A stretch of 64,000 nucleotides of DNA from a virus: IMG/VR virus record IMGVR_UViG_3300025436_000002, positions 1-64,000 of that record; one strand, written 5' to 3'. The translations under genes were made by a program, and so were the position numbers. The notes below the pieces were generated by a model. The model made no database searches, was not told the DNA's origin, and worked only from the letters and a program-made list of their open reading frames with translations. Of this stretch, positions 5,366 to 14,525 are shown one piece after another (within the stretch, counting starts at the first letter, position 1; every line of letters starts with the position of its first letter).

Positions 5366-5902
5366 ATGAATACTCATGAATTCATGGACAAGTTGCAGAA
5401 GATTAAGACTCAAGCTAATTTAAGAGAAGACAAACTTAGGGAGTCTAAAGAACATCCAGATAATAAGAAAGAGGTAGATACTGATAAGAAGAAAGTTCTT
5501 AAAAAGAATCCTATCAAAAAAACTAATATAGATGATAAACAGGGGACACCTACCGCTAAAAAAGGCATGGACTTTAAACCTAAATGTAACGTATCTAAAT
5601 TTGAAGCTAAGAAAGAAGCTCCTAAAAAGATTAATAAGAACGAAAGTATATTCGTTCTTGCAGGTATTGAGACTTTATTAGGAGATGCTGGTAAAGTTGA
5701 AGGTGCTAACACGGCTTTAAACATGATCAAGAAGTTTCAAGGTGGGAAACTTGATCCAGCTGTGGAAGAGTTTATTAACCTTTTCCAAAAATCACTTACC
5801 AGAACTCCTGAAAAAGGAGATAAGGGTAAGGATGCTGCTGAAACTTCTAAATCTAAAGTAATGAAAGCTCCTAAAGCAGATAATACAGATGTAAAACTTT
5901 AA
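5366..5902 (+). CDS. Lys-rich late protein, putative internal head protein
   Basis: K-rich low complexity, LRE/NES sites, terminator downstream. Confidence 0.55.
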   Translation: MNTHEFMDKLQKIKTQANLREDKLRESKEHPDNKKEVDTDKKKVLKKNPIKKTNIDDKQGTPTAKKGMDFKPKCNVSKFEAKKEAPKKINKNESIFVLAGIETLLGDAGKVEGANTALNMIKKFQGGKLDPAVEEFINLFQKSLTRTPEKGDKGKDAAETSKSKVMKAPKADNTDVKL

Positions 5903-5928
5903 TACAAAATTCACTGTTACTATTACTG

Positions 5929-5968
5929 CCCTCTTTCCGCCTAAGGGTTTAAAGAGGGTTTCTTTTTT
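5929..5968 (+). terminator. Intrinsic terminator
   Basis: CCCTCTTT...AAAGAGGG followed by a T-tract. Confidence 0.7.
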
Positions 5969-5988
5969 ATAGAACTAAAGGTGTGTGG

Positions 5989-6405
5989 ATGACTCTTAAA
6001 GACTTGAAAAACATATTAACTATCCTAGAAGATTACTCAGAAGGTGTCGAGACTATAGAATCGGAAGAACCTTTAAAAAAGAGTATAGATATTCATGATA
6101 TTATCAGGGTGTTAGAGAGATTTAAAAAAGATAAGACATTTAAAAAAGTATACAGGACATGTTTTGATTTTGACAGAAGTGGGAATTCCATATCCCTGAT
6201 TTTTAAAGTAAGTAGTATTAAAAAATCAGTATCTTTGGATGATATTTTAGAATCAGAGTTTGTAACTGATTTATTTAAAGAGTTAAAAGATAATAATGTC
6301 AGTAATTATCTCGTTAAGAGATTAAGCAATAGAGGTAACTACAAGTTACACCTACACGGTGATTTAGGGGTTTATCAAACTCCTTATTTCAAAGTTACTC
6401 TCTAG
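5989..6405 (+). CDS. Hypothetical protein
   Basis: ORF with leader MTLKDLKNILTILED; start uncertain (5983 or 5989). Confidence 0.55.
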   Translation: MTLKDLKNILTILEDYSEGVETIESEEPLKKSIDIHDIIRVLERFKKDKTFKKVYRTCFDFDRSGNSISLIFKVSSIKKSVSLDDILESEFVTDLFKELKDNNVSNYLVKRLSNRGNYKLHLHGDLGVYQTPYFKVTL

Positions 6406-6412
6406 TTTCCAC

Positions 6413-6475
6413 AGTAATACTAATAATAATAACCATAATAGTTGTAATAATATTTATCGTAGTATAAATGTTAGT
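6413..6475 (+). repeat. 63-bp direct repeat, copy 1
   Basis: Identical to 6972-7034 (AGTAATACTAATAATAATAACC...ATAAATGTTAGT). Confidence 0.95.
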
Positions 6476-6579
6476 ACCCTAGAAAAAACGAATACCCATG
6501 TATATACTAGTCTTTCTTATTATATATATATTAACATGAGGGAATACCTAGAAACTTTAAATAAAAATATGAATAGGCC

Positions 6580-6608
6580 TTGACAATGGGTAAATAGTAT
6601 GCTATACT
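6580..6608 (+). promoter_or_regulatory. Sigma70-type promoter
   Basis: TTGACA-17 nt-TATACT with extended TG. Confidence 0.85.
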
Positions 6609-6614
6609 GAATAT

Positions 6615-7180
6615 AGGTTACTTTAAATTGTTGACGAACTTCTTAAAGTAATTCAAGTTAACGCAAAGCAGGGTGAAATCAACTTAGCGAGGGATGCTTT
6701 TAAATTCCCACTCCTATAAAGGCTCGTCAGTCAGAATAGTCCCCTTCTCCAATGGACTTGACTCACGACTACTGGACGGAGACCCTAGTCCTTAAAAAAG
6801 ACTGAAAAATCCTCCTAAGAATACCACATAGGTGGGGATATGACGAGGCGACTCTTGAGAATGTGTCCCCTGAGAAGGAATTACTATCGGTGCAAGTACA
6901 TAGTAAGATGGGGCATAACGCTACCCTCAAGTTATAAATTTGAAATTAATATGAATATGAAGCTGAAAACTAGTAATACTAATAATAATAACCATAATAG
7001 TTGTAATAATATTTATCGTAGTATAAATGTTAGTTCAACACTCCCTGATTTAAGGGAGAACATTCCCCGAATGGGTGTCAAGTCAAGTAGTCAGTGCCAA
7101 GTACGAGAAGCCGTCTCACTAGAGGCGTTGGAAACGAGAAGATTAAGTCTGATTACCTCCAAATTCAAAAGATATCTGAG
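6615..7180 (+). ncRNA. Candidate large structured ncRNA or leader RNA (family unrecognised)
   Basis: Follows a consensus promoter; no credible ORF; more GC-rich than flanks; many nested inverted repeats; ends approximate. Confidence 0.55.
6972..7034 (+). repeat. 63-bp direct repeat, copy 2
   Basis: Identical to 6413-6475. Confidence 0.95.
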
Positions 7181-7192
7181 AGAGGGTTTAGG

Positions 7193-7891
7193 ATGCTAAA
7201 AGATTTTATAAAATTATACTTAAAGTCTATTCCTATATCCAAGATACGTAGAGATTCTGACATAAACTTTAGAACATTCTCTTTAAAGACAGGAAGGTTA
7301 CAAGTAACCCTTGTTAATACTCAACTCAGACTCGAGGAAATATATCCTAGGAAGGAACTATATCCCTTTACGGAAAGACATCCAGAATTTCTAATGATTC
7401 CAATAGCTACGTGTACTCAGAAGATAGTAGGGTTTATACTCAGAGGCGTTTCATTTAAGGAATATAGAATTATCTTCGAACCTAAAAAACCTTCCCCACT
7501 GTTCGGATGGGAGGACTTTAAGGACTATCAATCAGAATATCCAATAGTTCTATGTGAGGGGGTCAAGGATGCAATATACCTAAAACAACACTATAAGTAT
7601 GTACTATCCCTGAACACTTCTAGTATTTCGACAGCGAACATGGAAATCCTGAAAAGAATGACAAATAAGGTAATACTATCATATGATAATGATGAGACGG
7701 GCTTAAGGATGTCAAAATTGGACTCCAAGAGTTTGGACGAGAACGGCATATCATGTAGAATAGTAAAACCTAATCATAAAGATTGTGCTGAGTATTTAGA
7801 GAATAGTTATGGAGAGTTAGACTATCTGAGTATACTAGATTCTTCATTAAAATTGTTAGGGGGAGATGGCTGTGGAATTATTAAAAAATGA
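7193..7891 (+). CDS. Toprim-domain DNA primase-like protein
   Basis: LFGW...IVLCEGVKDAI...ILSYDNDETG...KD Toprim motifs; purine-rich RBS favours ATG 7193; no N-terminal zinc-binding domain. Confidence 0.75.
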   Translation: MLKDFIKLYLKSIPISKIRRDSDINFRTFSLKTGRLQVTLVNTQLRLEEIYPRKELYPFTERHPEFLMIPIATCTQKIVGFILRGVSFKEYRIIFEPKKPSPLFGWEDFKDYQSEYPIVLCEGVKDAIYLKQHYKYVLSLNTSSISTANMEILKRMTNKVILSYDNDETGLRMSKLDSKSLDENGISCRIVKPNHKDCAEYLENSYGELDYLSILDSSLKLLGGDGCGIIKK

Positions 7892-8828
7892 CTTTTTAAA
7901 AGGAGATGTCTATATCTTAGCTTTACAAGACTTGGACATGTTTTTTGAAAAGTACTACCCTTACAAAATGACAAATGCGGGAGTGTCTTCATTTTTAAAA
8001 GCATTGAAAATACCCGAAACATATTTCTTAAAACAACCTGACGAGACTAGAATGGAGCTTTTAGTAAATCAAAAAAACTCTATGACTTGTAATAAGGATT
8101 TAATACTCCTAGTCCGCAATGATATAGTTGAATATGTATCTTTAGGAGATAGGACTTCTATACTAGACTCCATTGATAGATCAAATATTAACGAGGATTG
8201 GATGTTCTTGGAAGAGGACTTAAAATCTGGATACATTAGATATTTTATGTTTTCAGAAAAGTTTGATGATGTTGATAAACTAATAGAGGGTAAAAGTTAC
8301 CTAGGTTTGTTCATAGATTACCCCGTCTTATTCTCAAAACCTATGATCATAAATGCAGGATTCTACAAAGCAACCTCTGAATTAAATGAAGACGGACTAC
8401 CGATAGAGTTAATTATTCCAGATACTCAAATTAAGCTTAAAGCTAAGGAACTCCCTGAAACAGTCAATAACCGTTACCTCCAAGATATACTTGAAGCCAT
8501 TAAGAAGACTAATCTTGATACTCTAATAGGCACTCTTGAAGGAATTACAACAGACTCAACATCATGTATAGAATCTCTACTCCTATTCGAAAAAGATAAG
8601 ACTTTAAATAGAAGTATCTCTAAGAAAGTTAGAAAGTACATAGACAAAGAGGAACTAAATATAGATAACATGTCTGAACTCTCCGAGATACTAGTATCCT
8701 TTATAAATACACTAACAAGTTACTCTTCAAAAGTTAAATTCAAGAGAGATATTCTATTTAGTATTTTAAAGTTTACCAATAAATTACCTGTTATTACATA
8801 TGTTCAAGATTTTATAGAAGTATATTAG
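7866..8828 (+). CDS. Hypothetical protein (weak DUF932-like N-terminus)
   Basis: 320 aa; LKIPETYFLKQP...LILLVRND loosely recalls DUF932 proteins. Confidence 0.45.
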   Translation: MAVELLKNDFLKGDVYILALQDLDMFFEKYYPYKMTNAGVSSFLKALKIPETYFLKQPDETRMELLVNQKNSMTCNKDLILLVRNDIVEYVSLGDRTSILDSIDRSNINEDWMFLEEDLKSGYIRYFMFSEKFDDVDKLIEGKSYLGLFIDYPVLFSKPMIINAGFYKATSELNEDGLPIELIIPDTQIKLKAKELPETVNNRYLQDILEAIKKTNLDTLIGTLEGITTDSTSCIESLLLFEKDKTLNRSISKKVRKYIDKEELNIDNMSELSEILVSFINTLTSYSSKVKFKRDILFSILKFTNKLPVITYVQDFIEVY

Positions 8829-10087: not shown

Positions 10088-10567
10088 ATGTCAAATGCTC
10101 CAGAAGAAGATGGAAAAATACTTATAAATCAAGTACAAATATCATCTGATAGGAAAAGAAAATTAACTTCCCAGAGTATATCTCCAGATAAGTTCATGGA
10201 TTTGGTAGCTGGGGAGTTTAAACATCTTAAGAAGTGTAATAGGATAATAAAGAAATTAGAGAAACTTGCATTCTCAGATGAATTTATATTCGGACTAGAC
10301 GTAAAAGATTTTTTTAAGTTTTATGAGATAATGTTAAAAGACAAGAATGTATCCTTGTCTTTTTACGCTAAACTTTATGAGTCTGCGACAAAGAATGAAT
10401 TACTTAGAACTTATTTTGAAAAACAAAAAGAAGAAACTCAGGGAGGCATGCCTCAAGATACTAGAATTCGTAGAGTGGTTAACGAAATAAGAGCTAGAGC
10501 TAAAGAAGCCCAGACTCAAATTAAACGAGAAGAAGACGGAGTAAGTGGAGATAATGAGCTATCATGA
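10088..10567 (+). CDS. Probable terminase small subunit
   Basis: Helical protein overlapping the TerL start; late motif at 10055; GGAGG RBS. Confidence 0.5.
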   Translation: MSNAPEEDGKILINQVQISSDRKRKLTSQSISPDKFMDLVAGEFKHLKKCNRIIKKLEKLAFSDEFIFGLDVKDFFKFYEIMLKDKNVSLSFYAKLYESATKNELLRTYFEKQKEETQGGMPQDTRIRRVVNEIRARAKEAQTQIKREEDGVSGDNELS

Positions 10568-13500
10568 TACTCTTGACTATGTAAGCGAAATACTAACAAG
10601 CGACCCTGACCTATCTGTATACGAGATGGGAGAAGTCATCTACGAGTTGACAACTAATTGTTACAAGACCAAGCCCGTGGATATAGAAACTTTTATAAGA
10701 GACCCATACTATTTAGGAAACTCCTTGGGTGATAATATCTATCCCCTGTGGATAGATTTATTAAAACAGATACATCCCCACCCTTGCTTAAATATGTATA
10801 ATGAGATAGCCCTATCCACCGCAATAGGGGTGGGTAAGTGCTTAGGAAAAGGAACTCGTATTTTAATGTTCGACGGCTCTATCAAGAGAGTAGAGAGTGT
10901 TAAAATAGGGGACTTATTAATGGGAGACGACTCCACACCTAGAAGAGTTCTTTCATTAGCCAGAGGTCGAGAGGATATGTACGAAGTCGTCCCTTCTGAT
11001 AATGGGGATTCCTTTACTTGCAATAAATCTCATATTCTTAGTTTAAAAGATAGATATCATGGCAGTATAACCAATATCTCGGTATCAGAGTACTTAGAAA
11101 AAGACGATAACTTTAAAACAGTCAATAAATTGTACAGAAAAGCTGTCCACTATTCAGAAGAGCCCTTAACTATAGGTGCATATACTTACGGTCGTTGGTT
11201 AGGATCGGAATCCTCAGAGGACACTCTTATGTATAATCCAGAAGAGTTTCCAACATCCTATCATATATATAAATCAGTAACATCAGGGGATAGTTCAATA
11301 CCTAAAGAGTACTTAGTCAATTCAGAAGAGAATAGATTGAAACTTTTAGCGGGTATCTTAGATTCCTCAGAATTAGATCTCAGATATCCAGATCAAGATA
11401 TTCTATCAGTTACAGTTAAAAACTTAGTATTAGCAGAAGATATAGTATATTTGAGTAGATCCCTAGGCTTTTCAGCTAAATTGGAAAAGGATACTTATTT
11501 TACATCTACAGGGTACTACGTAGACATATCTGGAGATTTCTCCAGAGTACCCTCAGACTTTAGGATGGACAGTATATCAACTAGAGACGGCCTATTAGAA
11601 ACCGACTTTACATTAAATTTTCTAGGGGAGGGGGATTACTATGGGTTTACTCTGGACTGTAATCATTTATACCTATTAGGAGATTTTACAGTAACTCATA
11701 ACACAACATGTGCTATAATATCTATGGTTTATGAGATGTATAAGCTACTATGCCTTAAAAATCCATATGAATTTTACTCCATAACAAAGGGAACCGATAA
11801 ATTTTCGTTTGCATTAATAGCCCCTACCCATGCTCAAGGGACTTCAGTAGCTTTTGGAAAACTGTTGGGCATGATAAACACTTCTCCATTTTTCAAGGAT
11901 GTAAAAGCAACTCCAAAAGCTAGATCCTCAGTATCTGAGGAGGGAATCCATATAGGAGACAACATAACAGTACATACAGGTTCAAAAATGGACCACTTGA
12001 TAGGAAAATTGACTTTCTGCGGTCTCATGGATGAGGTATCCTTTTTTCAAGGTAAAGATGCCATAGCAAAAGTAAAAGATTTACACATGGGATTTACTGG
12101 AAGAAAGAAATCAAGATTTATACACTTAGGGGAGTTCATACCAGGAGTTCTATGGATGGTAAGTTCCCCAATAGACGAACAAGACTATCTAAATACTGCC
12201 ATAGAAGAGATGCAAAGTAATCAGTATGGTATATATTTCGACAACATAAGTCTGTGGGAAGTCAAGGGGGACTACTTAGGGGATAAATTTAAGGTATTCT
12301 TAGGAGACGATAAAAAAGAACCATGCATTATTCGTGAAGAGGATAAAGTACCTGAGGATATAAAGGCTTTGGCAATAGAAGTACCTATGGAATACTATAG
12401 GGAATTTGATTTAAACATATCCAGAGCTGTAAGGGATATTGCAGGAAGAAGAATAAGAGCTGACATATCCCTATTCAAATCTAAGAAGCAGTTAGTAAGT
12501 CTATTCGTAAACCCTAATAGATTTAAGAGTGATGTCATAAGCATGTCTTTTAATGATCCATTAGATAAGTTAGAAAATTATGTTACAAGCCTAGATTACT
12601 TCAAGAAACCCCTAAATCCACAATGTTATAGATTTATACACTTAGATGCTGCGACAAAAAAGGATAAATTTGGAATATCTGCGGTATACAGTACTCTAGA
12701 AGACTTTGATCTTTATAAAACTGATATAAACATGCCAAGCTTTAAAAGAAAAGAAAGAATGTTTTATGTTGATTTTGCAGTAGCTATAGAAGCCCGTAAA
12801 GGGGAAGAGATTAACATATACAAAGTAATGGACTTTATATTTTTATTAAAGAAGTTAGGATACCCTATAAAGGTAGTAAGCTCAGATATGTTCCAAGGAG
12901 ATGTAATGAGACAATTCTTAAGATTGCACGGAACTACTACAGCATATTTATCAGTAGATAGAACTAAAGATCCATATTACGCTTTAAAAGAGTTGGTAAA
13001 TAATAATAAAATAATTGGAGTTAAAAATGAGTTTCTAATAAAAGAACTTTTGGGTCTTAGAGAGCTCACTAAAAAAGTAGATCACCTCGCAAACAGCTGT
13101 TTCACGGGAGATACTCAAATAAAACTATTAGATGGAACCTCGAAGAGTTTTAAAGAGTTATCTGATTTAGGAACTTCTAATGAGTTTTGGGTATATGGAT
13201 GCCTGCCTGATGGAACTATCGTTCCAGCCAAGGCATATAACGCTCATAAGACAAAAGAAGTCTCCTGTCTAGTAGAAGTCTGCCTAGATGATGAGAGAGA
13301 TCCTATAAGATGCACCCCTGAGCATTTATTTATGATGAGGGATGGATCTTATAAACAAGCTCAATACTTAGAACCTAAGGATTCTCTAATGCCTATATAC
13401 ATTAAAGAGCAAAATTACAAATATAGGAGTGGAGGCGTAGGTAGGTATTTTCAAATTAAGAATAATAAAACAGGAAGATACAATTTTATCCATAGATTAG

Positions 13501-14525
13501 TAGCATCCTATCACTATCAGCATACCTTAGCTAAGGACGAAGTAGTACATCATAGGAATTTCAAACCAAGTGATAATTCTCCAGAAAATTTAGAAATAAT
13601 GAGCATATCAGATCACACTAGAAGACATGCCTTTCTGAGTGGACTAGGGAGACTCCACACGGATAAGAGAGTAGCTTCTTTTAAAAAGAACTATTGGGCT
13701 AATCCAGATAACTCAAAGAGGAGAGATGACAGACTTAAAATTAAATTGGATAGGCAAGAGTACATGAAAACTGATAAATATAGACAAGACATTTTAAATA
13801 TGAGATTAACTAATGAAAATATCATAGCTAGGAATAAGATTGCAGGTAAAAAACTAAATGAAATATACTGGAAAAGTAGTGAAGGGAAAGCTAGAAAAGC
13901 AGAAGTTTGGGAATATCAACAACAGACGATGAGAGATGGTCAGAAAGAATATTTTGACGAACTAGCTAAACAGAGAAAAGAGCCATGGAAAGAGTATATC
14001 CTTAGCTATCAACATGCTATGCATGTTGCAGGAGGTTATGTAAAATCGTGGGCTAAGAGAATAGACTCGAGTACCTTTCAAATAAACTCAGAAAAACTTA
14101 GAGGCATGCCCTTAGAAGAAATACTTAGGGTTACTGGTCTTTCTCCTAAAAAGTTAACTAACTACTTAGTAAGGTTGGGTAAGTTAGACATACTTCCAGA
14201 GTATAATCATAAAGTAGTCAGAGTATCCGTAATAGAACTAGACGTAACCGAAGATGTCTACGATATAACTGTCCCATCCACGAATAATTTTGCGTTGGAT
14301 AATGGAATATTTGTACACAATTCAAAAGATTTAAGTGACTCGGTTACGGGAGGTGTTTGGTCTTGCTTAAATTCTTGTGAGTACATGAATCTTCAGAATG
14401 TTTATGAAGGAATAGTAAGTAAAAATGAAGGTCCTCCTCAGATACAAGGACATATAGGAAATTTGATGAAAGAAGCTCAAAATAAACAAAAGAGAGAAGG
14501 TTTTAATAAGACTTTAGGCTTCTAA
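10545..14525 (+). CDS. terL: Terminase large subunit with two inteins (about 630 aa after splicing)
   Basis: Walker A TAIGVGK|TT, Walker B GLMDE, RNase H-like FIHLD and SKDLSD; directly upstream of portal. Confidence 0.9.
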   Translation: MEIMSYHDTLDYVSEILTSDPDLSVYEMGEVIYELTTNCYKTKPVDIETFIRDPYYLGNSLGDNIYPLWIDLLKQIHPHPCLNMYNEIALSTAIGVGKCLGKGTRILMFDGSIKRVESVKIGDLLMGDDSTPRRVLSLARGREDMYEVVPSDNGDSFTCNKSHILSLKDRYHGSITNISVSEYLEKDDNFKTVNKLYRKAVHYSEEPLTIGAYTYGRWLGSESSEDTLMYNPEEFPTSYHIYKSVTSGDSSIPKEYLVNSEENRLKLLAGILDSSELDLRYPDQDILSVTVKNLVLAEDIVYLSRSLGFSAKLEKDTYFTSTGYYVDISGDFSRVPSDFRMDSISTRDGLLETDFTLNFLGEGDYYGFTLDCNHLYLLGDFTVTHNTTCAIISMVYEMYKLLCLKNPYEFYSITKGTDKFSFALIAPTHAQGTSVAFGKLLGMINTSPFFKDVKATPKARSSVSEEGIHIGDNITVHTGSKMDHLIGKLTFCGLMDEVSFFQGKDAIAKVKDLHMGFTGRKKSRFIHLGEFIPGVLWMVSSPIDEQDYLNTAIEEMQSNQYGIYFDNISLWEVKGDYLGDKFKVFLGDDKKEPCIIREEDKVPEDIKALAIEVPMEYYREFDLNISRAVRDIAGRRIRADISLFKSKKQLVSLFVNPNRFKSDVISMSFNDPLDKLENYVTSLDYFKKPLNPQCYRFIHLDAATKKDKFGISAVYSTLEDFDLYKTDINMPSFKRKERMFYVDFAVAIEARKGEEINIYKVMDFIFLLKKLGYPIKVVSSDMFQGDVMRQFLRLHGTTTAYLSVDRTKDPYYALKELVNNNKIIGVKNEFLIKELLGLRELTKKVDHLANSCFTGDTQIKLLDGTSKSFKELSDLGTSNEFWVYGCLPDGTIVPAKAYNAHKTKEVSCLVEVCLDDERDPIRCTPEHLFMMRDGSYKQAQYLEPKDSLMPIYIKEQNYKYRSGGVGRYFQIKNNKTGRYNFIHRLVASYHYQHTLAKDEVVHHRNFKPSDNSPENLEIMSISDHTRRHAFLSGLGRLHTDKRVASFKKNYWANPDNSKRRDDRLKIKLDRQEYMKTDKYRQDILNMRLTNENIIARNKIAGKKLNEIYWKSSEGKARKAEVWEYQQQTMRDGQKEYFDELAKQRKEPWKEYILSYQHAMHVAGGYVKSWAKRIDSSTFQINSEKLRGMPLEEILRVTGLSPKKLTNYLVRLGKLDILPEYNHKVVRVSVIELDVTEDVYDITVPSTNNFALDNGIFVHNSKDLSDSVTGGVWSCLNSCEYMNLQNVYEGIVSKNEGPPQIQGHIGNLMKEAQNKQKREGFNKTLGF
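10839..11702 (+). mobile_element. Intein 1 (288 aa, degenerate LAGLIDADG type) in TerL Walker A
   Basis: Starts CLGKGT, ends VTHN, +1 residue Thr; LLAGILDS block. Confidence 0.9.
13098..14321 (+). mobile_element. Intein 2 (408 aa, HNH type) in the TerL nuclease domain
   Basis: Starts CFTGDT, TPEH block B, ends FVHN, +1 residue Ser; HRLVA...VHHRN...DNSPENL HNH motif. Confidence 0.9.

Follow-up and report, generated by a model that had tools for sequence, protein, structure and literature searches.

A conserved non-coding module with a promoter and a repeat pair upstream of the Toprim gene in a lineage of large uncultured phages

Which function resides in 787 nt of phage DNA that lie between two conserved genes and do not hold a credible gene themselves? 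This question is raised by a gap at positions 6406-7192 between a 140-aa ORF and the gene of a Toprim-domain protein. The DNA analysed here, in the following called the window, comprises 64,000 nt, i.e., the first 64 kb of a 170.2-kb IMG/VR record (IMGVR_UViG_3300025436_000002; GC 34.4%) of an uncultured phage that carries nearly all of its genes on the + strand. A DNA search against cultured phages gave no match, a search with the Toprim protein returned solely unannotated fecal phage contigs (27-31% identity), and for the portal protein distant matches only were obtained in cultured phages (about 22-32%; T4-like Rhizobium phages at about 31%). The lineage is one of large, uncultured myophages. 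The gap is the largest ORF-free and tRNA-free region of the genome and adjoins the primase-like Toprim gene. Its features are the following:

5983-6405, + strand: 140-aa gene, conserved, function not assigned; upstream bound of the module
6413-6475, no strand given: R1, first copy of a perfect 63-nt direct repeat, 17% GC
6476-6579, no strand given: spacer between R1 and P1, AT-rich, with a (TA)n run near 6518-6532
6580-6608, + strand: promoter P1, -35 TTGACA at 6580-6585, 17-nt spacer, extended -10 TGcTATACT at 6600-6608
6609-6971, + strand: body of the putative P1 transcript, untranslated, 363 nt; holds the GC island; hairpins predicted only
6840-7199, + strand: 119-aa ORF, annotated as a gene in some pipelines, considered spurious
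6972-7034, no strand given: R2, second copy of the repeat, 100% identical, inside the putative P1 transcript
7035-7192, + strand: 3' part of the leader, with the hairpin CTCCCT/AGGGAG at 7041-7058 and short repeats GTCAAGT/TCAAGT at 7077-7092
7180-7186, + strand: ribosome-binding site GAGAGGG before the Toprim ATG
7193-7891, + strand: Toprim-domain (primase-like) gene, ATG at 7193; first gene downstream of the module

The original prediction, made from the letters of the window, placed here about 580 nt that lack a credible ORF. In fact none is present in the whole of 6406-7192, and recoding of any single stop codon rescues no frame. The stop-to-stop frames of the gap gave no family in Pfam or PHROG, so that stop-codon recoding and gene relics were ruled out. 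The 119-aa ORF was rejected as a gene as well: it matches no family, has no counterpart in related phages, where instead a promoter stands about 59 nt ahead of the Toprim gene, and passes through R2 as an Asn-rich run. It had also been claimed that the stretch is more GC-rich than the genome, and positions 6629-6928 indeed form a GC island: with 44.3% GC they exceed the genome mean (34.4%, SD 3.3) by about 3 SD and fall in the top 0.45% of 300-nt windows. It is one of eight such islands, another of which is the tRNA cluster.

The consensus promoter named in the same prediction, TTGACA followed after 17 nt by TGcTATACT, was found at 6580-6608. P1 is of the sigma-70 type, matches the consensus in 11 of 12 positions and has an extended -10 element; judged from its sequence, transcription would start near 6615. 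Sites of the P1 family (TTGACW-N14-TGnTAnnnT) occur about 32 times on the + strand of the 170-kb genome compared to 8, mostly poorer, sites on the - strand. On the + strand between 6580 and 20892 P1 is the sole consensus promoter and is thus likely the promoter of the tightly packed block that follows it, i.e., the genes for Toprim, a 320-aa, a 55-aa, a sigma-like, a 115-aa and a 163-aa protein, terminase and portal. Promoters of the P1 type were also seen at two places of the same genome outside the window. At 86990-87958 (L062:582-1595) 9-10 tRNA genes lie behind such a promoter at 87015, and one of them (L062:778-853) is a suppressor-type tRNA with anticodon UUA according to ARAGORN but is not recognised by the Rfam tRNA model. 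Translated with table 11, the window's genes are normal. The second largest tRNA-free and ORF-free gap of the genome (646 nt, 111095-111740, locus L063) has a promoter of the P1 type at 111361, a tandem repeat of 27 nt at L063:1095-1148 and no match to Rfam or tRNA models.

Both genes next to the gap are conserved. The Toprim gene product matches Pfam Toprim_2 (1.7e-11) and the DNA primase families of PHROG, and its E...DxD residues are invariant in 13 homologues; in the relatives the homologues comprise 203-234 aa and are called as a separate gene. The protein has no zinc-finger domain and may not act as a primase. For the 140-aa protein, Pfam and PHROG gave no match and a homologue search returned the protein itself alone; syntenic homologues of 138-153 aa precede the gap in the relatives L014, L015, L017, L019-L025 and L037. 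The gene order kept in the relatives is P4_cII-like, about 80 aa, about 160 aa, about 140 aa, gap, Toprim, about 310 aa, about 50 aa, sigma-like, about 115 aa, about 150 aa and terminase. Three observations on this block may be added. The conserved 320-aa protein encoded after Toprim (window 7866-8828) gave an AlphaFold model with pLDDT 88 and pTM 0.86 that matches no PDB fold, the lead to DUF932 coming from a protein atlas only. The terminase-like gene (window 10545-14525) encodes 1326 aa, i.e., about twice the length of the roughly 634-aa homologues of the relatives, and carries Hom_end_hint, Intein_splicing and weak HNH_3 matches (Pfam notes, locus L002). In one relative a TnpB-type gene (Cas12f1-like_TNB; L013:4236-4975) is inserted between the about 150-aa gene and the terminase position.

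Related contigs were collected via Toprim homologues with 42-67% identity and represent about twelve distinct phages. In these relatives the same succession of repeat, promoter, variable body and repeat is found upstream of Toprim, often with short tandem repeats and a further promoter after it; the gaps vary in length from 221 to more than 1331 nt. A promoter of the P1 form is present at the same place in every relative. The promoter-driven non-coding unit that had been proposed to head the Toprim gene block is therefore supported by a position kept in about twelve relatives, and the gap is a real, conserved and unannotated non-coding control module. In L009, L019-L025, L035 and L036 about 55-59 nt separate the second promoter from the Toprim start, in L014 about 125 nt; unlike many relatives, the window has no second promoter in 7035-7192. 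The tandem repeats after R2 consist of a 15-nt unit present many times in L014, of 21 nt in L037, of 19 nt in L036 and of shorter units in L013, L017 and L035; they are weak in the window and absent in the clade of L019. The 15-nt direct repeat array of L014 (TTTTGACTTTTTTGA; L014:3183-3370) looks like an iteron array; it follows the second R-like element, precedes the second promoter and continues up to an assembly gap filled with Ns. In the gap of the window, TCAAGT occurs 4 times compared to 0.27 expected. Where the window has the spacer between R1 and P1, AT-rich palindromes or 19-nt tandem repeats occur in the relatives. The end of contig L010 (1-145) forms a perfect palindrome with arms of 71 nt; it was discarded as an assembly artefact, since the L011 and L012 assemblies read through this place with a different sequence.

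The most unusual feature of the region is the 63-nt direct repeat, whose two copies, 559 nt apart, bracket promoter and body. In the assembled 170-kb genome the repeat R has two copies, both of them here and with unrelated flanks. An independent assembly of the same phage (L005) spans the whole structure with 99.9% identity over 5900-7300, and other assemblies of this phage break exactly at R1 or R2. The arrangement is thus real, and the copy number of R and of the 559-nt unit is not fixed by these short-read assemblies. Six genomes carry a perfect direct repeat at the same place:

Window: 63 nt, spacing 559
L017: 57 nt, spacing 531
L019: 67 nt, spacing 408
L020: 60 nt, spacing 421
L021: 60 nt, spacing 419
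L023-L025: 62 nt, spacing 418

Among the other relatives, L037 retains just 22 identical bases in its pair, L014 has two R-like elements that are not identical, and in L015 and L030 P1 is followed at once by one R-like element and no body is present. Several contigs start at or in the repeat, as expected for assembly breaks. R comprises 57-67 nt with 17-23% GC across genomes, is the best conserved part of the gap between clades and is the sole part that BLAST aligns across them. Across clades its identity amounts to 60-70%, within each of the six genomes to 100%. Between L020 and L023 one base differs in the shared part of R, and the change is found in both copies of each genome. Copies that are identical within a genome and different between genomes are evolving in concert.

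Moreover, R has an internal order. Of its 21 triplets 13 are of the type A-R-N, a number reached by none of 2000 shuffles, and this 3-nt periodicity is significant in 10 out of 10 genomes (0-18 of 2000 shuffles reach the observed count). Two frames of R are open and AAY (Asn) triplets are abundant. Coding does not account for the periodicity, because neither a consistent start codon nor a consistent frame relation exists and the frame has an in-frame TGA in L023; on these grounds R was rejected as a coding sequence, be it in the Asn-rich or the Ile/Val-rich frame, and also as a frameshift extension of the 140-aa gene or as a tmRNA-like tag, with no tmRNA found by ARAGORN. R does not contain a good + strand promoter. 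Its periodicity is compatible with an (AAT)n-like unwinding element under constraint or with a platform for a triplet-reading protein. Such A-R-N repeats are bound by the distal face of Hfq.

A self-splicing intron or another ribozyme had been hinted at by the complement GACTA/TAGTC, which loosely resembles P7 of group I introns; the two open frames of R might suggest a gene for a small protein or peptide, and the richness of R in AAY triplets together with its position at the 3' end of a gene resembles the variable repeat of a DGR template/variable repeat pair. For the intron, whose conserved P3-P9 core with a G-binding P7 a covariance model would detect, Rfam gave no Intron_gpI match at gathering score or at E <= 10, and exons that would join into one ORF are missing. 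The 140-aa ORF closes with a stop codon of its own, and Toprim has its own start codon and ribosome-binding site, i.e., both flanking genes are complete, separate and conserved, which argues against a group I intron. A DGR is contradicted by R copies that are identical and show no adenine differences and by the lack of a reverse transcriptase among the neighbours (Toprim, 320-aa, sigma-like), and a peptide gene by R frames that lack a consistent start, contain the TGA in L023 and match no protein family. These readings are refuted as far as sequence analysis allows, and the chance left to them is practically negligible.

The perfect and, in six genomes, sharp-edged repeats that evolve in concert might alternatively mark an excisable or amplifiable cassette, in which recombination of R1 with R2 would loop out a 559-bp circle or build tandem copies, comparable to the PeSL mini-circles of T4-type phages or to attL/attR of a tiny integrated element. 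T4-type phages are known to make mini-circles between repeated regulatory motifs (PMC2839356). However, PeSLs are dispersed and R is confined to this locus, no recombinase is encoded nearby, and none of the contigs examined has an empty site or a tandem junction. The module occupies the same position in all relatives and gives no sign of mobility. We regard an excisable cassette as very unlikely.

The body between P1 and R2 was described in the original prediction as dense in nested helices. All of the listed helix motifs are present where they had been placed, the first pair being complementary over 6 instead of 7 bases. The density of helices is what chance provides: complementary 6-, 7- and 8-mers in 6609-7192 amount to 53, 15 and 5 compared to 51, 13.2 and 3.4 in dinucleotide shuffles. 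Folding energy relative to shuffled sequences had been named at the time as one part of what could refute the idea. The 363-nt body folds at shuffle level (MFE z = -0.2 on the + strand and +0.3 on the - strand), and the whole leader (6608-7192, 585 nt) shows a modest signal with z = -2.16 on the + strand and -1.03 on the - strand. A pseudoknot formed by the two crossing long-range complements is sterically implausible. The complements are ordered a, b, a', b', with helices of 8 bp and 7 bp and connectors of 4 nt and 1 nt, which by geometry are too short for both helices to coexist; these complements would rather be alternatives or DNA motifs. The suggested search with cmscan against Rfam yielded nothing at gathering score and noise only at E <= 10, in the window as well as in ten related loci. 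Bodies of different clades are the most variable part of the gap and cannot be aligned, and neither nhmmer all-against-all nor a shared k-mer test detected a similarity across clades beyond shuffles. A AGGTTACT-like motif in the 5' part of the bodies, seen by eye, failed the shared k-mer test. In most genomes the bodies are GC-enriched relative to their own loci. As a summary of the earlier expectations, promoter, non-coding status and GC richness are confirmed, and elaborate RNA fold, pseudoknot and intron are not; of the unrecognised large non-coding RNA or leader the promoter-driven non-coding unit remains, whereas the body folds at chance and has no alignable homologue.

For a sister clade the situation is different. 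The stretch from P1 to R2, about 300 nt, is clearly homologous in four phages (L019:2903-3205, L020:2962-3275, L021:2965-3276 and L023:2969-3279, all on the + strand) and shows covariation. RNAalifold predicts 78 pairs in 11 helices with standard pairs in 97.4% of the cells. Eleven pairs changed on both sides compared to 3.9 +/- 1.5 in shuffles, of which 0 of 500 reach 11, and 0-3 pairs changed on both sides in controls with slid partners. The many G-U pairs favor the strand transcribed from P1, and an ORF in the L023 body is broken in L019. By these alignment data the sister-clade body is a genuine structured RNA of about 300 nt, under selection and absent from Rfam. A covariance model built from it found no match in the window, in the other clades or in 17 further IMG/VR loci collected via a conserved 17-mer. 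The body of the window is the positional counterpart of this RNA, which lends the idea of a large structured RNA indirect support; its own fold does not exceed chance and the two cannot be aligned.

A body that is hypervariable between clades, conserved and covarying within one of them, GC-rich like the island of the tRNA cluster and driven by a strong promoter could represent a gene for a trans-acting phage RNA that acts in host takeover, anti-defence or immunity, diverges rapidly in an arms race and is placed here by ancestry. The two relatives that lack the body would be expected for such an accessory gene. Against this, neither a terminator nor a defined 3' end was found, no Rfam family or other locus matched, nothing points to a target, and the position is strictly fixed. 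A trans-acting RNA is rather improbable.

The opposite reading takes the gap as filler without function, i.e., an operon promoter with a drifting spacer in which the 63-nt duplication arose neutrally through recombination and may reflect a tandem array that collapsed in the assembly. The lack of a fold signal, a shared motif and a homologue of the body agrees with that, as do the wide variation in gap length and the breaks of short-read assemblies at R. Yet an island of 44% GC, 3 SD above the mean, is unlike drift in a phage with 34% GC, and the layout persists down to 42% Toprim identity. Furthermore, the R copies remain identical in six genomes while diverging between genomes, the sister-clade body covaries, and a direct repeat of 60 nt would presumably delete the insert by recombination unless the insert is selected. 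We consider mere filler unlikely.

If the module is functional, it might be purely regulatory. P1 and a long leader, or an early non-coding RNA where a second promoter exists, would then tune the Toprim-sigma-terminase block and have no role in replication, and R might serve as an A-R-N-rich single-stranded platform for an RNA-binding protein, as with the distal face of Hfq, or for RNase E. It fits this reading that P1 is the sole consensus promoter before more than 13 kb of genes, that no terminator separates the P1 transcript from Toprim, that the A-R-N periodicity of R is kept in 10 of 10 genomes despite 60-70% identity, and that RNA structure is selected in the sister clade and the whole-leader signal (z = -2.16) is confined to the + strand. 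Conversely, the second full promoter between R2 and Toprim in many relatives means that the RNA is not needed as a leader there. Moreover, neither a terminator/anti-terminator pair nor a helix that sequesters the ribosome-binding site was found, and R1 lies upstream of P1 and thus outside the P1 transcript. A purely regulatory role is possible, and we rate it as doubtful.

The best explanation in our view, held tentatively and with somewhat less than even confidence, is that the module is a transcription-activated replication origin, or a leader, similar to the PE1-T origin of Lactococcus phage c2. By this analogy, P1 would drive a non-coding RNA into the easily melted, AT-rich R2 and then into the short tandem repeats, and at R2 the transcript would open or prime the DNA beside the replication genes. 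The same P1 transcript would double as a 578-nt leader of the Toprim-sigma-terminase block, since this phage has no second promoter. We infer transcription, the origin role and the function of R2 as unwinding element from the arrangement of the locus. Layout and position are kept in about twelve relatives at 42-67% Toprim identity; R is AT-rich and best conserved and the body between the promoters most variable, as in the origins of Ceduovirus. The gap adjoins a primase-like gene and in several genomes tandem repeats follow directly after R2, the sister-clade body is a covarying + strand RNA, and L015 and L030 display the T4-type form of a promoter plus unwinding element. GC skew is uninformative as an origin marker, because almost all genes are on one strand. 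Several findings speak against an origin: the window body has no fold beyond chance and no homologue, the tandem repeats are weak in the window and missing in the L019 clade, the body RNA strand is not G-rich (skew about -0.08), unlike classic R-loop formers, and the Toprim protein lacks a zinc-finger domain.

A transcription-activated origin also does not require a second identical R upstream of P1 and leaves the repeat pair unexplained. The upstream identical R is accounted for by none of the readings and is the most interesting point of the locus. There is a small chance that the identical, A-R-N-periodic repeats of 57-67 nt are the core of a new phage element, i.e., a promoter-RNA cassette between continually homogenised sites that is looped out, amplified or replaced and thereby brings clade-specific RNAs into a fixed slot, or that the repeats recruit a triplet-reading, Hfq-like protein on the upstream and the P1 transcripts. 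The notable novelties of the module are the concertedly evolving repeat pair and the covarying RNA of the sister clade; the kind of region is already known. The sister-clade RNA adds one phage RNA of about 300 nt to those known, supported by covariation and missing from Rfam. Repeat copies that are homogenised within and diverge between genomes offer, for a virus, a clear example from nature of concerted evolution across 400-560 bp. If the preferred reading of a transcribed origin is true, the module locates the replication or early-control centre of a large, uncultured phage lineage that has been sampled widely, in metagenomes of lakes, groundwater and landfill, and it extends the principle of the transcribed origin, represented by Lactococcus c2, T4, T7 and ColE1, to this lineage.

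A looser likeness exists to the promoter-dependent origins of T4, T7 and ColE1. The T4 origins oriF and oriG consist of a middle promoter and a downstream unwinding element with an R-loop as primer, the primary origin of T7 of promoters and an AT-rich region, and the promoter-dependent ColE1 origin uses RNA II, a folded pre-primer of roughly 550 nt. What these share with the module is a promoter from which transcription would enter an AT-rich element that melts easily and lies next to replication genes. The T4-type order of promoter and AT-rich element is found exactly in L015 and L030, and the body length of 240-770 nt recalls RNA II. There is neither sequence similarity to these origins nor a G-rich RNA stretch, and the duplicated repeat is new here. 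With the RNAs GOLLD, ROOL and HEARO and with group I introns (Rfam) the module shares the size range, the phage setting and a GC-enriched island in an AT-rich genome; yet none of these families is matched in the region even at E <= 10, and no conserved fold can be demonstrated for the RNA of the window. Among known modules flanked by repeats, the PeSLs come nearest, promoter-terminator cassettes of T4-type phages (PMC2839356, PMC4122927). Here as there, a module of a T4-like genome is enclosed by repeats of about 60 nt, whose recombination could give circles or deletions. Whereas PeSLs are dispersed in many copies, each with an early promoter and a stem-loop, and lie beside ORFs, R has two copies at one locus, has no good promoter and flanks a non-coding unit.

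Finally, the closest likeness is to the origin of Ceduovirus (c2, bIL67 and 923 types), where the early promoters PE1 and PE2 enclose a non-coding stretch that varies with the type and yields the untranslated transcript PE1-T, which may be crucial to start replication (PMC7150918). In both cases a non-coding stretch heads early or replication genes, and a strong host-type promoter would give an untranslated transcript. A second promoter of the same direction, as at the end of the Ceduovirus stretch, is present in many of the relatives and absent in the phage of the window. Like the Ceduovirus stretch, which is recognised by the lack of an ORF or ribosome-binding site after the first promoter, 6609-7192 contains no credible ORF. 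In Ceduovirus it is between the two promoters that related phages vary most, and here the bodies of the clades cannot be aligned. The module differs by belonging to a myophage of about 170 kb of another lineage, in which the origin role is a proposal by analogy, and by its two identical AT-rich repeats of 57-67 nt, which are not among the c2 origin features read in PMC7150918. Relative to transcribed origins as described there, the concertedly evolving repeat pair is an added feature.
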